Origin: an uncultured beta proteobacterium
GTDB taxonomy: Bacteria > Pseudomonadota > Gammaproteobacteria > Burkholderiales > JAEUMW01
NCBI GenBank assembly: GCA_963734295.1
Contig: CAVTGS010000012.1
Location: 326,099 to 390,098 of the forward strand
Direction of reading: 5' to 3'
DNA: 64,000 bases
Positions 33,186 through 42,926 of this stretch are shown piece by piece; within the stretch, counting starts at the first letter, position 1, and every line of letters starts with the position of its first letter. The notes under the pieces are model-generated. The model saw nothing but the letters and a program-made list of their open reading frames with translations, made no database searches and was not told the DNA's origin. A program made the position numbers and the translations under genes.

Positions 33186-36100
33186 TCAAGCCACCGCCCA
33201 CTCTTGGCTGAGTAGCGCCGCCTGCTCCAGCACGGTCTGCGTCGCCTTCTCCTGCTTGTCGGGCGGGTAGCCGTACTTGCGCAGGATGCGCTTGACCAGC
33301 ACGCGCAGCTGCGCGCGCACGTTCTCGCGCAGCGTCCAGTCGATGGTGACGTTGGCGCGCACGGTCTCGACCAGCTCCTGCGCGATGGTCCGCAGCGTCT
33401 CGTCGCCCAGCACCTTGACCGCGCTGTCGTTGGTCTCCAGCGCGTCGTAGAACGCCAGCTCGTCCTCCGAGAGCCGCAGCGCCTCGCCGCGCGCGTTGGC
33501 CTCGCGCATCTCCTTCGCGAGCGCGATCAGCTCCTCGATCACCTGCGCCGCCTCGATGGCGCGGTTCTGATAGCGGCGGATCGTCTGCTCCAGCATCTCG
33601 GCGAACGAGCGCGCCTGCACGACGTTCTTGCGGCCGCCGCGTGCGCGAGCTCGCCCTTCAGCAGCTTCTGCAGCAGCTCCACCGCCAGGTTGCGCTGCGG
33701 CATCCCGCGCACCTCGGCCAGGAACTCCTCCGAGAGGATCGAGATGTCCGGCTTCTGCGAGCCCGCCGCGGCGAAGATGTCGATCACGCCCTCCGGCGCC
33801 ACCGCGCGCGAGATGATCTGCCGCACCGCGTGCTCGATGTCCTCCTCGGGCCGCGCGTCGCCGGGCGCGCGCTTGGCGAGCACCGCCTGCACCGCCTGGA
33901 AGAACGCCACGTCGTCGCGGATGCGCAGCGCCTCGTCGTGCGGCACCGCCAGCGCGAAGGCCTGCGACAGCTCGCGCACGGCGCGCACGCAGCGGTCCTT
34001 GCCGTTCTCCTGCGCCAGGATGTGCTCCTGCGCCGGCGGCAGCAGGCCGAGCCGCTCCTGCGGCGTCCCGGTCGTCCACTTCGACCAGTCGAAGCCGTGG
34101 AACAGCCCGGCGCAGACCTCGTACTTCTCCAGCATCACGGCGACCGCCTCGTCCTGATCGAGCGCCGTGCGCCCGGTGCCGCCGCTCTCGGTGTACGTCG
34201 CCAGCGCCTGCTTCAGCTCCTGCGCGAGGCCGAGGTAGTCCACGACCAGGCCGCCCGGCTTGTCCTTGAACACGCGGTTCACGCGCGCGATCGCCTGCAT
34301 CAGCCCGTGCCCGCGCATCGGCTTGTCGATGTACATCGTGTGCAGGCTCGGCGCGTCGAAGCCGGTGAGCCACATGTCGCGCACGATCACGAGCTTGAAC
34401 GGGTCCTTCGGGTCGCGGAAGCGCTTGGCCAGCGCCTCGCGCCGCGGCTTGTTGCGGATGTGCGGCTGCCAGTCGGCCGGATCGGAGGCCGAGCCGGTCA
34501 TCACCACCTTGAGCGCGCCCGTGCTCGTCGTCGGCGCCGTCCCAGTCAGGCCGCAGCTTCACGATCTCGCGGTACAGCTCGACGCAGATGCGCCGGCTCA
34601 TGCAGACGATCATCGCCTTGCCGTCCATCGCCTCCAGCCGCTTCTCGAAGTGCTCGACGATGTCCCTGGCCACCAGCTCCAGCCGCTTCTCGGCGCCGAC
34701 CACGGCCTCGAGCTGCGCCCACTTGGTCTTGAGCTTCTCCTTGCGCTCGACCTCCTCGCCCTCGGTCGCCTCCTCGAACTCGGGGTCGATCTTCGGCCGC
34801 TCGGCCTCGTCGAGCGCCAGCTTGGCCAGCCGGCTCTCGTAGTAGATCGGCACCGTGGCGCCGTCCTGCACGGCGCGCTGGATGTCGTAGACGCTGATGT
34901 AGTCGCCGAACACCGCGCGCGTGTTGGCGTCCTGCAGCTCGATCGGCGTGCCGGTGAAGCCGATGAACGAGGCGTGCGGCAGCGCGTCGCGCATGTGGCG
35001 CGCGAAGCCGTCGATGAAGTCGTACTGGCTGCGGTGCGCCTCGTCGGCGATCACCACGATGTTGCGGCGGTCGGAGAGCGTCGGGTGCCGGTCGCCCTTC
35101 TCCTCGGGGAAGAACTTGTGGATGGTGGTGAACACCACGCCGCCCGCCGCCACGCTGAGCAGCTCGCGCAGGTGCGCGCGGCTCTCGGCCTGCACCGGCG
35201 GCTGGCGCAGCAGGTCCGGCAGCGCGAGAAGGTGCCGAAGAGCTGGTCGTCGAGGTCGTTGCGGTCGGTGAGCACGACGATGCGTCGGGTTCTCCATCGC
35301 CGGCTCGCGGATGATGCGGCCGGCGTAGAACGCCATCGTCAGGCTCTTGCCCGAGCCCTGCGTGTGCCAGACCACGCCCACGCGCCGGTCGCCGGGCTTG
35401 CCGCCGGGCTTGCGGCCCGCCTCGTAGCGGCCTTGCTCGCCTCGGCGACCCGATCGGCCGCGCTGCAGCTCCGCCGCGCGCAGCGTCTCGCCCACCGCCA
35501 CCTGCACCGCGTGGAACTGGTGGTAGCCGGCCATCTTCTTGACGATGCGGCCGCCGTCGTCCTCGAACACGATGAAGTCGCGCAGCAGGTCGAGGAAGCG
35601 CCGCGGCGCGCACAGGCCCTCGATCACCACCTGCAGCTCGGGCAGGTGCGCGTCGGCCAGCGTCTCGCCCGCGATGGTGCGCCAGGGCTTGAACCACTCG
35701 CGCCCGGCGCTGAGCGTGCCCACGCGCGCCTCCACCCCGTCGGAGACGACGAGCAGCGCGTTCGGCGCGAACAGCGTCGGCACCTCGGCCTGGTAGGTCT
35801 GAAGCTGCTGGAAGGCGCTCCAGATCGTGGCGTTCTCGTCGGCCGCGTTCTTGAGCTCCAGCACCGCCAGCGGCAGGCCGTTGACGAACAGCACCACGTC
35901 CGGCCGGCGCGTGTGCTTGTTCTCCGCGACGGTGAACTGATTGACCGCCAGCCAGTCGTTGCCGCCGGCGTCGTCGAAGTCGATCACCCGCGCCTGCGCG
36001 CCGCGGATGCTCGCCGTCGGCGTCGCGGTACTCGACCGTCACGCCATCCACCAGCAGTCGGTGCAGCGGCGCGGTTGCGCGCGATCGAGCTCCGCGACCC

Positions 36101-36334
36101 TCGGGCCGCGTGAGCTTGCGGAAGGCGTCTTCCAGCGCCTCGGCGGGAAGCGCCGGGTTGAGCCGCGCGAGCGCATCGCGCAGGCGCTGGGCCAGGACCA
36201 CCTGCCCGTAGTCGTCGCGTTCGGCAGCCGGTTCGCCGGGGGCGATCTCGGCGCCGTTGCGGACCGTGCCAGCCGACGCTCTCCAGCCAGGCGAGCGCGG
36301 CCTGCTCGACGACAGACTCCGAGAATCGCGTCAC
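33186..36334 (-). pseudogene. hsdR: Type I restriction enzyme R subunit HsdR (copy A), at least 8 frameshifts
   Basis: HsdR sequence is spread over ORFs 35984..36577, 34546..36201, 33186..35987, 35051..35275 and 33539..34507. It contains [21 protein letters not shown] and [22 protein letters not shown]. Details are in the findings. Confidence 0.85.
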
Positions 36335-37206
36335 CGGCCCCCTGCCATTCGGGCTGCCTTCAGAGCGCCCGCAACGAGGACGCGGATCTCCTCGACGACG
36401 TGCTGCAGGCCGGGCGCTTCGAGGCGGTTCTTGTCGACAAACGCGTTCCACTGCGTTTGCTTCGCTGCGTCGCGGGCGAAGGCGTCCGAAAGTCCGAGCG
36501 GTACGCCGTCGGGAACCGTAGTGCGGCGGCGCTCGAAGGTGGCCAAGATCGCGCGCTCCAGCTCTCCGGGATCGCATACGTTCTCACGCAGCAGCGCATG
36601 CAGGTCGAAATAGTCCTTCATCCGGCTGTTGGCCGACCCGAGCGCCACCATGGCATGCAGCTTCTCCGCCATCACGGATGCGCGGGAATAGGCACGCAGG
36701 CGAGGCCGGGGCAGATCGAGCAGGCTGGGATAGTCGATCCAGGCCGGCTCCGGCGTCACCACGTCGCCGACGCCGACATCGACCTGCACACGGAGCCGCG
36801 CCGCGCCGAGGCGGGACTGAAGCGTCACTCGGTGCCCGCCGTATTCGGCTTCCAGGCGGATCGGTGCGACGCTCACCGTATCGGCCAGGAACGTCATCGC
36901 ATCTGGTTCGACGGTGGCGTTGCATACCTCGCCGAAGATCTGCGCCAGCGCATCGTCCGATAGGTCGCCGAAGCCCAGCAGGTCGGCATCGCGCGTCGGG
37001 CGAAGCGTATCGCCGAACCAGACTAGCAGGAGCAGCGCGCCCTTCAGCACGAACCGATCCCCATGGGGAGATTGTGAGAGCCGGTAAAGGAACCGCTCCA
37101 CGGCATAACGTGCGAGGACGAGGTTCGGGTCCACGCCGATCGCTTTCGCATGCCGCGCGAGCCGAACCTGCACCGAACGGGCGAGGCCGTCGCGCGCCCC
37201 GCTCAT
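36331..37206 (-). CDS. abiEii: AbiEii/AbiGii nucleotidyltransferase toxin (type IV TA)
   Basis: C-terminal 291 aa of ORF 36331..37305, from MSGARDGLARSVQVRLARHAK, with VLKGALLLL..RPTRDADLLG. Its stop overlaps the hsdR-A GTG start (GTGA). Confidence 0.8.
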   Translation of the reverse strand: MSGARDGLARSVQVRLARHAKAIGVDPNLVLARYAVERFLYRLSQSPHGDRFVLKGALLLLVWFGDTLRPTRDADLLGFGDLSDDALAQIFGEVCNATVEPDAMTFLADTVSVAPIRLEAEYGGHRVTLQSRLGAARLRVQVDVGVGDVVTPEPAWIDYPSLLDLPRPRLRAYSRASVMAEKLHAMVALGSANSRMKDYFDLHALLRENVCDPGELERAILATFERRRTTVPDGVPLGLSDAFARDAAKQTQWNAFVDKNRLEAPGLQHVVEEIRVLVAGALKAARMAGGR

Positions 37207-42612: not shown

Positions 42613-42767
42613 CTCGATTCTCCTACGCCCCACCGCGGTTCTCCCTCTGGACAAAAGTCCGAAAGGGTAGCGGTAACGCGCTCAGTTCGAGATGCCCGTC
42701 TTTGCCTCACCTGGCTCCAATATGCCGATCACGGAGTGGCTCCAATATGCCGATCGCTGACAAGCGC

Positions 42768-42926
42768 GTCGCGCAGGCGCTGCAGAAGGACCACCTGCCC
42801 GTAGTCGTCGCGTTCCGCAGCGGGTTCGCCGGGTGCGATCTTGGCGCCGTTCCTGACCTGCCAGCCGACGATTTCCAGCCAGGCAAGCGCGGCTTGCTCG
42901 ACGACGGATTCAGTGAAGGTAGTCAT
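42768..42926 (-). pseudogene. hsdR: hsdR 5' remnant (copy C), proximal piece before the IS21 insertion
   Basis: ORF 42729..42926: [55 protein letters not shown], then IS21 terminal sequence. Confidence 0.85.

Follow-up and report, generated by a model that had tools for sequence, protein, structure and literature searches.

Truncated hsdR heads in a Type I restriction-modification operon as probable scars of anti-phage module gain

The locus described here raises a simple question: why does a single Type I restriction-modification (R-M) operon contain the beginning of its restriction gene, hsdR, three times, each time next to a different set of defence genes? The operon lies in a stretch of 64,000 nucleotides (nt) from an uncultured beta proteobacterium (contig CAVTGS010000012.1, positions 326,099 to 390,098, assembly GCA_963734295.1), which we call the window and to which coordinates refer unless another locus is named. 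A first-pass annotation, made by a model from the sequence letters, had noticed three hsdR 5′ ends at 36334, 38105 and 42926, and we found all of them at these starts on the minus strand. The entire locus is on this strand, in a region with a G+C content of 60–71 %, and its genes are ordered SoFic, hsdM, hsdS, an ABC ATPase, an insertion sequence (IS), hsdR head C split by an IS21 element, darTG, hsdR head B, abiE and the full hsdR (copy A). The genes hsdM, hsdS and hsdR share one orientation and the defence genes between hsdS and hsdR are unrelated, which is the arrangement of a Type I R-M operon with embedded defence genes. We conclude that the hsdR heads are probably recombination scars in an operon that works as a recombinase-free platform for stacking and exchanging anti-phage modules.

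Copy A is the full-length hsdR (33186–36334), whose GTG start codon overlaps the abiEii stop and whose sequence contains at least six frame changes. Head B (37903–38105) is about 200 nt long and covers hsdR nt 1–391 minus two internal deletions (nt 1–30, 115–223 and 330–391 are left), with a 2-nt insertion. Head C is found in two parts, as an IS21-family element (40184–42762) interrupts it after nt 164. The first part (42763–42926, hsdR nt 1–164) is preceded by the leader motif CTCATTTAAGCGTGTCC. The second part (39989–40183, codons about 54–118) continues at 40183 and stops about 30 nt before darT, and this junction region is also kept in L084 and L085 (L with a number labels a compared locus). 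With the IS21 element removed, head C amounts to ~350 nt of hsdR, with one open frame to codon about 105 and a recognisable sequence to codon about 118. The number of copies given at first pass was correct, and we can add a fourth, vestigial hsdR scrap of about 18–25 nt (37871–37888), which matches the RDALAR codons at hsdR nt about 153–170 and sits in a filler of ~45 nt between head B and the abiE promoter. With C interrupted by an IS and B full of deletions, the window scars are non-coding relics.

Comparison of the window with itself using blastn recovered the repeats with E-values of 1e-18 to 1e-49, well beyond chance. Copies A and C match at 36170–36325 and 42763–42917 (87 %, 156 bp) and at 36024–36174 and 40036–40183 (85 %, 151 bp), and copies A and B match at 36092–36223 and 37947–38079 (84 %, 134 bp) and at 35944–36005 and 37903–37964 (90 %, 62 bp). 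Aligned, A and C are 85.7 % identical over 307 nt, A and B 86 % over 109 nt and 92 % over 63 nt, and B and C 85–87 % across their two longer common pieces (30 and 111 nt). The earlier estimate of ~80 % was slightly low, the measured identity of the repeats being 83–87 %; the modules that they enclose are unrelated, and neither feature is that of a recent tandem duplication. The 44 differences between C and A in 307 aligned positions are distributed as 10/5/29 over the three codon positions (66 % third). As they fall mostly at third positions, the heads do not derive from a recent local duplication, and C and A are different alleles, as had been proposed, which diverged under selection. Ranked as each other's relatives among about 90 hsdR heads of other loci, A came 23rd and C 2nd, and B was 18th for A. 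The nearest outside allele for A, B and C alike is the darTG-linked hsdR of L127, to which copy A is 92–100 % identical per 100 nt beyond nt 100.

Every head goes together with the module to its left, and the order proposed at first pass (ATPase before C, darTG before B, abiE before A) was confirmed by Pfam and PADLOC, with the correction that the ATPase gene and C are separated by an IS1380-like element. The second passenger module (38261–39956) consists of darT (39339–39956) and darG (38261–39325), an ADP-ribosyltransferase and its macrodomain antitoxin (Pfam DarT and Macro; PADLOC DarT 6.5e-71, DarG 1.8e-131). It is separated from head B by a spacer of 155 nt (38106–38260) with the conserved leader TTGCCTATTTAAGGCTTTCC, and a matching spacer is present in L087 and L126. 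The third module (36331–37811) consists of the overlapping genes abiEi (37203–37811) and abiEii (36331–37206), encoding a regulator and a nucleotidyltransferase (found by Pfam and by PADLOC with 6.9e-86 and 3.4e-95, respectively), and its promoter region begins about 46 nt upstream of abiEi. By Pfam and PADLOC, the darTG and abiE of the window are ordinary members of their families.

The heads are not a peculiarity of this one operon. We scanned one genome per species with the C head and obtained 80 loci from Proteobacteria, Chloroflexota, Planctomycetota, Acidobacteriota, Gemmatimonadota and other phyla, in which the head is 62–86 % identical at the protein level and the hsdR body 70–97 %. 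Using the first 900 nt of each full hsdR as a query panel on 73 loci, we identified extra hsdR head fragments in 23 of them, 32 fragments in total. Their placement is far from random: 31 precede the full gene on its own strand, the remaining one is a 52-bp match on the other strand and none lies downstream, while sequence length alone would put 31 % in the upstream same-strand position (binomial P = 3e-15). Nearly all scars start in the first 16 nt of hsdR, often with the native upstream context, and their ends are spread from nt about 40 to about 700. The identity of a scar to the resident full hsdR is mostly 74–91 %, with L080 (96.5 %) as an exception. Differences from the nearest full allele again favour third codon positions (178/183/400 by position, 53 % third; chi-square P = 3e-28), and much of the divergence therefore dates from the time when the copies were functional genes. 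Scar-bearing loci include complete chromosomes of metagenome-assembled genomes (MAGs; OZ- and OY-prefixed records) as well as short-read assemblies. Two candidates, L001 and L002, were rejected as scar loci, since they are frameshifted full hsdR genes. This hsdR family was not found in E. coli complete genomes and all plasmid matches were below 60 % identity; these collections therefore offered no well-annotated isolate example.

The hsdM 3′ end is duplicated after a Fic gene or another module between hsdM and hsdS in L003 (8381–8453 and 9678–9748), L007 (3223–3299 and 4570–4646) and L028 (1834–2516 and 4573–5183). These duplications mirror the hsdR-head scars and show that the other junction has the signature as well.

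When metagenomes were scanned with DarG, 33 loci were obtained. In nine close relatives (DarT at least 80 % identical) the sequence ahead of darT was readable, and eight of them have an hsdR head remnant directly upstream of darT (the window, L038, L084, L085, L086, L088, L100 and L109); only L127 is without it. The remnant exists in a long form (window, L084 and L085) and in a short form with one common internal deletion. Its upstream neighbours are unrelated modules differing between loci, and downstream of the remnant-darTG unit we found the full hsdR directly (L086), another type of abiE (L084), RhuM and an ATPase (L038), other genes (L088), or head B and abiE (window). The L088 scar is 78 % identical to the darTG-linked scar family versus 69 % to its own hsdR. 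The first-pass idea of successive local gains has to be modified here, as the scars are often old and travel with the module, and the window therefore need not have had three separate local events. In L087 (925–1530) and L126 (6003–6612), darT lacks its first 274 nt and darG is intact, which leaves the antitoxin orphaned; these two loci also lack the copy C remnant.

Intact junctions of a module with an hsdR of matching head, which the first-pass annotation had proposed to look for in other genomes, do exist. We identified darTG directly upstream of such an hsdR in L086, L087, L126 and L127, and abiE in L117, L120–L123, L031 and L053. The four loci L120–L123, a functional example with intact R-M genes, have the order AAA_13, hsdR scar (nt 7–298 and 438 to about 590), abiE and hsdR, and L118 has a scar ending at nt 306 ahead of abiE. 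In L118 (1835–2407) and L124 (11900–12313), the hsdR downstream of abiE is cut to head and tail fragments; these are R-M operons decaying around a retained abiE module.

The comparison with L117 shows that a module and the hsdR beside it can have separate histories. The abiE genes of the window and L117 differ at 23 of 1533 nt (1.5 %; 98.5 % identical), whereas the adjoining hsdR sequences differ at 103 of 791 nt (13 %; 87 % identical). The identity switches between 36340 and 36314, no more than about 25 nt from the start codon (Fisher P = 1e-29). One module is therefore present on two hsdR alleles, and the crossover is in the highly conserved first hsdR codons (F-T/S-E-S-V-V-E). As hsdR can be swapped beside an unchanged module, the divergence between a scar and the full gene is no proof that each module arrived with its own hsdR.

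The reverse situation, one gene head with different modules, was found around darTG. L126 and L087 have in common with the window the ATPase gene (90 % identical), darG (89 %) and the leader-bearing spacer. The darG of L126 is followed by an intact 132-codon hsdR head remnant, then by a SLFN/HATPase_c_4 module and then by the full hsdR. In L086 and L127, an uninterrupted hsdR (about 88–92 % identical to the window) occupies this darG-linked position. With abiE in the window and the SLFN module in L126, the darTG-linked hsdR was therefore invaded by different modules in different lineages. The intact scar open reading frames (ORFs) in L126 and L028, like the chimeras of hsdR head and hsdS tail described below, reach the start of the next module or overlap it, and from this layout it is possible that scar ORFs are retained for translational coupling.

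About a quarter of the scars fuse in frame to the C-terminal tail of hsdS. In L020, L080 and L024, the joint is exactly ...QRLRDAL of hsdR followed by LPKLISGELRV... of hsdS, and three different modules come after it: Peptidase_M78 with DUF4411, AAA_21 with DUF4276, and a DUF262-type (GmrSD-like) gene recognised by eye. L003 and L079 have 35–65 codons of the hsdS tail and L067 and L071 are similar. The residues (L/M)RDAL are encoded by both the hsdS tail and the hsdR head (at nt about 150), with 8–14 identical nt in several loci; the joints of L020, L024 and L080 are located at a common LRDAL patch of 10–14 nt, and nine of about 33 scar ends, tallied from blastn coordinates, form a cluster at nt 140–175. 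The hsdR::hsdS joints are illegitimate or microhomology joins, as a homologous crossover cannot make them. In L126, a 68-nt hsdS tail still stands before the ATPase gene, two other modules now separating it from hsdS; at 4139–4213 of this locus a truncated RhuM ORF is fused to the 68-nt tail, a further chimeric joint of this type, with the tail ahead of the ATPase gene exactly as in the window.

In the window itself, the hsdS tail reads ...RMRDALLPQLISGELRI and 13 nt (TGCGCGACGCACT) are common to this tail and copy B. No hsdS-tail chimera is present besides the real hsdS and no microhomology partner was identified for the window's own joints. When the origin of the fillers was sought, the one that separates C from darT matched the window alone, and the one between B and abiE proved to contain just the 18-nt hsdR scrap.

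We also noticed Chi octamers of the E. coli type in the hsdR head. The octamer GCTGGTGG is present at hsdR nt about 277 (copy A about 36058) in 29 of 74 alleles, and the Chi-type octamer GCTGGCGG at nt about 378 (copy A about 35957) in 41 of 74. They stand just upstream of two groups of scar ends (nt about 290–318 and 391). A link with end processing is speculative, because the Chi sequence considered is that of E. coli and the numbers are small.

Passenger content was summarised by a Pfam scan of the ORFs between hsdS and hsdR in 20 scar-bearing loci, 89 ORFs in all. Defence families, either known or candidate ones, prevail: AAA_21/AAA_15 ATPases (often with DUF4276), RhuM/Fic, AAA_14/DUF4143, Macro and DarT, SLFN_AlbA_2/HATPase_c_4, Peptidase_M78 with DUF4411, GmrSD_N and AAA_13. 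The modules take up little space and in most cases run up to the hsdR start codon or overlap it, and the same joints of module and hsdR recur in many genomes. No tyrosine or serine recombinase was among the 25 most frequent Pfam families of these ORFs, the only mobility genes being IS transposases, and Pfam recognised no recombinase gene in the window's island or modules. The first-pass view of the hsdS-hsdR junction as a stacking site with no recombinase seen in the modules was borne out.

A mechanism that would account for these observations can be proposed as follows. The hsdM-hsdS-hsdR family is spread over many phyla and has very conserved gene ends, and its copies differ in the modules that fill the space from the hsdS stop to the hsdR start. 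Ordinary, RecA-type recombination would swap modules as well as hsdR alleles, with the right crossover in the hsdR head and the left one in the hsdS tail or the hsdM end. Occasionally, the left join would fall inside the resident hsdR head, either illegitimately or at a microhomology such as LRDAL, or else homologously with a scar already present in the donor. The incoming module with its hsdR would then be added instead of replacing the resident one: the old module and a truncated head would remain, and the new module would front an intact hsdR. Repeated additions would give a stack. A module placed between two hsdR heads could enter any related hsdR by homologous recombination alone, and the recurrence of an identical scar-module unit in different contexts would follow from this bracketing. 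At least one illegitimate or microhomology join would still be needed per new scar, because homologous recombination alone cannot leave a truncated head beside foreign DNA. The earlier proposal of module gain by homologous recombination at the hsdR head is, in this light, partly supported and incomplete on how a scar arises: the scars need an illegitimate or microhomology join, as the chimeras of L003, L020, L024, L079 and L080 show directly. In a wider form, which we put forward tentatively and hold somewhat less probable than not, the operon family would consist of integron-like recombinase-free platforms, in which the hsdS tail and hsdR head act as universal homology arms for the exchange, addition and stacking of compact defence modules across phyla, and the scars as portable left arms that make a module self-propagating into any related hsdR, some of these scars keeping a frame that ends at the start of the next module.

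Several points weigh against the reading of the heads as recombination scars of module gain. Copy B and the L126 remnant end at the identical nucleotide (...GACTGGCTGGCGGT/G) with different DNA following; this common end point requires a hotspot or an exact replacement, and the stacking model does not predict the coincidence. The longest string common to a locus's own hsdS tail and hsdR head averages 9.0 nt versus 8.0 nt for shuffled tails, which is unconvincing as a sign of microhomology across loci in general; the LRDAL patch concerns a subset only. Copies A and B are both nearest to the same outside allele (L127), which fits target duplication. In model bacteria, DNA of 85 % identity recombines inefficiently. 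The compared loci included no two near-identical genomes representing the states before and after a gain, and no single event could be reconstructed end to end. An origin in one step (a homologous right side and an illegitimate left side) and one in two steps (head duplication between microhomologies, then exchange) cannot be distinguished, because allele swapping beside the modules blurs the one signal that could separate them. Finally, the loci, mostly metagenome-assembled genomes, were fetched with an hsdR-head query, possibly favouring those with extra heads, and kinship between loci inflates counts, for which reasons the frequency of about a third is rough.

Of the alternatives, the most probable one places duplication first, and we consider it unlikely. 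It supposes that unequal exchange or replication slippage between short direct repeats (e.g. the LRDAL codons) tandemly duplicated the segment of hsdS tail, module and hsdR head, an insertion with long target duplication as Nobusato and Furuta understand it, and that one module copy and/or the full hsdR were later replaced by homologous exchange with the operon of another strain. The LRDAL chimeras of head and tail are exactly the novel joint of a tandem duplication, the L080 scar is 96.5 % identical to its own full gene, A and B share their nearest allele, an hsdR swap beside an unchanged module is demonstrated by L117, and the whole island is bracketed by a 37-bp target duplication (see below). 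However, no locus with tandem copies of one module was found, and L080, which has the youngest scar, shows no detectable repeat of the pre-hsdR sequence beside it in the 272 nt upstream. Most scars are equally distant from the resident gene and from foreign alleles, so that extra replacements would be needed each time, and an hsdS tail is missing from the window scars.

A purely local origin, in which the resident hsdR head was duplicated and then simply decayed neutrally without any contribution from foreign alleles, is already disfavoured and seems very improbable. Head B is indeed heavily decayed, with deletions and a 2-nt insertion, and scars are pseudogenes, hence fast evolving. But neutral decay does not explain the third-position excess in the differences between C and A and over all scars, the frame of C that is open to codon about 105, or the L088 scar that is nearer to foreign alleles than to its own hsdR. 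It also does not explain why abiE differs so little from that of L117 when B and A differ by 14 %.

An assembly artefact, i.e. a chimeric path in the metagenome graph that linked strains with different modules through the common hsdR head, has in our opinion hardly any chance of being the explanation. The suspicion arises because the window comes from a 1.05-Mb MAG contig, because the single-base frame changes in hsdR A and hsdM are missing from a 94.6 % identical relative, and because L001 and L002, from similar assemblies, have the same type of damage. The frame changes are unevenly distributed: 11.5 kb of passenger, IS, hsdS and Fic genes have none, copy A has at least six and hsdM at least two. 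L117 is in frame and 94.6 % identical to the window over abiE and the first 790 nt of hsdR, and compared with it copy A has at least five private single-base insertions within its first 330 nt. These changes represent either real decay of the R-M genes or consensus error from mixed reads of similar hsdR and hsdM genes. In both cases the scars are unaffected, because scars B and C end in non-hsdR DNA and have internal deletions, which a graph mis-join at a repeat cannot make. Moreover, a short-read unitig from ERR12036782 contains the exact DarT together with flanking C and B sequence and provides independent support for the stretch from C through darT and darG to B. L087 and L126 have the order ATPase, darG, spacer and hsdR head at 88–90 % identity, and L117 supports the junction of abiE with hsdR. 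All joints except that of B with abiE (37903–37867) have support from an independent assembly. Equivalent junctions were recovered across assemblers and read types (contig names of SPAdes and MEGAHIT style, long-read assemblies, complete MAG chromosomes), and L120–L123 are short-read assemblies of four samples with intact hsdM and hsdS and an hsdR of 1063 amino acids (aa).

Site-specific insertion, in which the modules would be true cassettes and the hsdR head the attachment site of a recombinase (an integrase or an integron-like enzyme) that works in trans or has its gene elsewhere, is just as improbable: it would suit the compact recurring boundaries (the left edge of abiE precedes abiEi by about 46 nt in the window, L031, L053 and L120), the modules abutting the hsdR start codon and the clustering of scar ends, but neither the window island nor the most frequent passenger families include a recombinase, the scar ends vary widely, the scar-module junctions differ by locus without a common core, and the repeats, 40–700 nt of coding sequence with 74–97 % identity, do not resemble att or attC sites.

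Type I R-M operons are known to contain embedded defence genes. PrrC in EcoprrI is one example. In enteropathogenic E. coli (EPEC), DarTG2 is located between hsdS and hsdR at a site termed 'a potential recombination hotspot' (PMC12255303), and TgvAB in VPI-2 of Vibrio cholerae is also embedded in a Type I R-M operon (PMC11411939). Like in the window, these are anti-phage modules between hsdS and hsdR in operon orientation. The EPEC and TgvAB reports, in contrast, describe single embedded modules with no gene fragments, whereas here up to three modules are stacked with truncated hsdR heads between them, and within one cosmopolitan family such scars, together with hsdS-tail chimeras, come back in 23 of 73 loci.

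Another relevant process, insertion with long target duplication, was reportedly described by Nobusato et al. in 2000. Kobayashi's group described it for whole R-M systems, with repeats that often span a start or stop codon, and proposed no enzymology (Furuta, Abe and Kobayashi 2010, PMC2853133). Both there and in the window, no mobility gene for the insertion is present and the insert is flanked by long, variable direct repeats of the target. The whole island of the window fits the definition, with its 37-bp repeat of the Iso_dh gene 3′ end, a size below 20 kb and R and M genes, if the two later IS elements are left aside. Regarding the single modules, darTG and abiE are flanked by direct repeats of more than 30 bp from the target (the hsdR heads), as Furuta's description has it; the near-identity of repeats that it asks for is not seen, the module repeats being 83–87 % identical, and a cargo of R and M genes is present only in the island as a whole, not in the darTG and abiE inserts. 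The published inserts are whole R-M systems between near-identical repeats, e.g. 44/46 (PMC2853133), while here an R-M operon houses the cargo, which consists of toxin-antitoxin and abortive-infection-type modules, the repeats represent diverged alleles (74–91 %), the same target was hit repeatedly, which gave arrays, and some joints are hsdR::hsdS chimeras.

Homology-facilitated illegitimate recombination is said to have been shown by de Vries and Wackernagel (2002) in laboratory transformation of naturally competent bacteria. It combines one homologous anchor, here hsdR, with one illegitimate microhomology join, foreign DNA being added beside the anchor, and the joints in L020, L024 and L080 resemble its products. 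In our case the process is read from sequence, and the window joints have no identifiable microhomology partner. Integron arrays are similar in the promoter-proximal stacking of compact, mostly defence-type cassettes at one site, with cassettes common to distant hosts. Unlike in integrons, no integrase, attC or attI was seen in the operons, and the boundaries are pieces of the platform genes with variable break points. Tsuru and Kobayashi (2008) defined a unit of evolution that runs from the 3′ part of an ORF across the spacer into the 5′ part of the following one (PMC2568036). Its exchange, bounded inside two neighbouring genes, resembles that of hsdS tail, module and hsdR head, but their case concerns tandem lipoprotein paralogues in one species, without cargo genes or truncated scars.

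The first-pass annotation knew of no description of such a stacking site. The hsdS-hsdR hotspot is already in print (PMC12255303), but in the full-text literature that we searched, with subscription journals outside its scope, we found no description of the hsdR head as a repeatedly duplicated target for non-R-M modules, nor of stacked arrays of diverged scars, hsdR::hsdS joints or the spread of a scar-module unit. As far as searched, the scar array and the mechanism that it implies are not described.

The assembly of defence islands, and the pile-up of unrelated systems in them, is largely unexplained beyond carriage by mobile elements. The scars are a readable record of single assembly steps in one operon: they show modules being added and not swapped, one module on different hsdR alleles and one gene head invaded by different modules. 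The pattern indicates a way to build defence islands without a dedicated recombinase. In practice, fragments of hsdR heads and hsdS tails can be used as landmarks, anything between two of them being a candidate defence module. They also draw attention to faulty annotation, for example of short 'HSDR_N' ORFs and of RhuM::hsdS or hsdR::hsdS chimeras.

Regarding the rest of the island, its first gene is of the SoFic-type Fic/DOC family (49522–50715, minus strand; Pfam Fic_N and Fic, PADLOC SoFic 8.7e-121). It is followed by hsdM (47789–49525, minus strand), a pseudogene or an assembly error with at least two frame changes, as tblastn with the HsdM of L005 resulted in three high-scoring segment pairs in frames -1/-2/-1. 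The hsdS gene (46550–47710, minus strand) is intact (Pfam Methylase_S, PADLOC Specificity_I). Its stop is overlapped by the start of passenger module 1 (44778–46556, minus strand), which encodes a 592-aa ABC-type ATPase (AAA_21/AAA_15) resembling AriA, OLD and NsnB and is the gene with a 90 % identical copy in L126/L087. The assignment of this ATPase to DUF4435 and PARIS was reproduced by neither Pfam nor PADLOC. PADLOC matched AriA (4.6e-21, residues 213–309 only), with NsnB, Old and GajA scoring similarly; the AriA, NsnB, Old and GajA models match over the nucleotide-binding parts only and the AriAB model covers just residues 259–331. As no Pfam family matches the C-terminal 273 aa at E <= 0.1, and no DUF4435/TOPRIM (AriB) domain is recognised there, the first-pass label DUF4435 could not be upheld.

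The IS1380-like element (42977–44602, plus strand; DDE_Tnp_1_4 transposase at 43059–44582) is a later insertion into the spacer upstream of copy C, 50 nt from its start. It has 13-nt terminal inverted repeats (CCTAAAAACGGCA/TGCGGTTTTTAGG) and a 5-bp target duplication (TTTAT), and is present in a single copy. The IS21-family element (minus strand; istA 41080–42654, istB 40268–41080), also single-copy, has the ends TGTCAGCG...CGCGACA and a target duplication GCGCT, and is inserted in the RLRDAL codons of copy C.

The whole island of 17.8 kb is bracketed by a 37-bp direct repeat (33132–33168 and 50999–51035), the two copies being identical at 35 of 37 positions. The copy at 50999–51035 is within the 3′ end of an Iso_dh-family gene (50937–52244, minus strand) and the one at 33132–33168 is a stray fragment just past the hsdR stop, which fits insertion of the whole R-M island with long target duplication; no empty target site was found for the island. 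Outside it, an acyl-CoA synthetase-like gene (30787–32296) is split into two overlapping ORFs by a frame change near 31590. The last minor observation concerns a conserved motif of ~22 nt (TTGCCTATTTAAGCGTTTCC), which is located 15–45 nt ahead of the hsdR start in all cases without translational coupling between hsdR and the gene before it (in the window at about 38122–38146 and about 42945–42967, and also in L001, L034, L065, L082, L087 and L126) and may be a promoter or operator.

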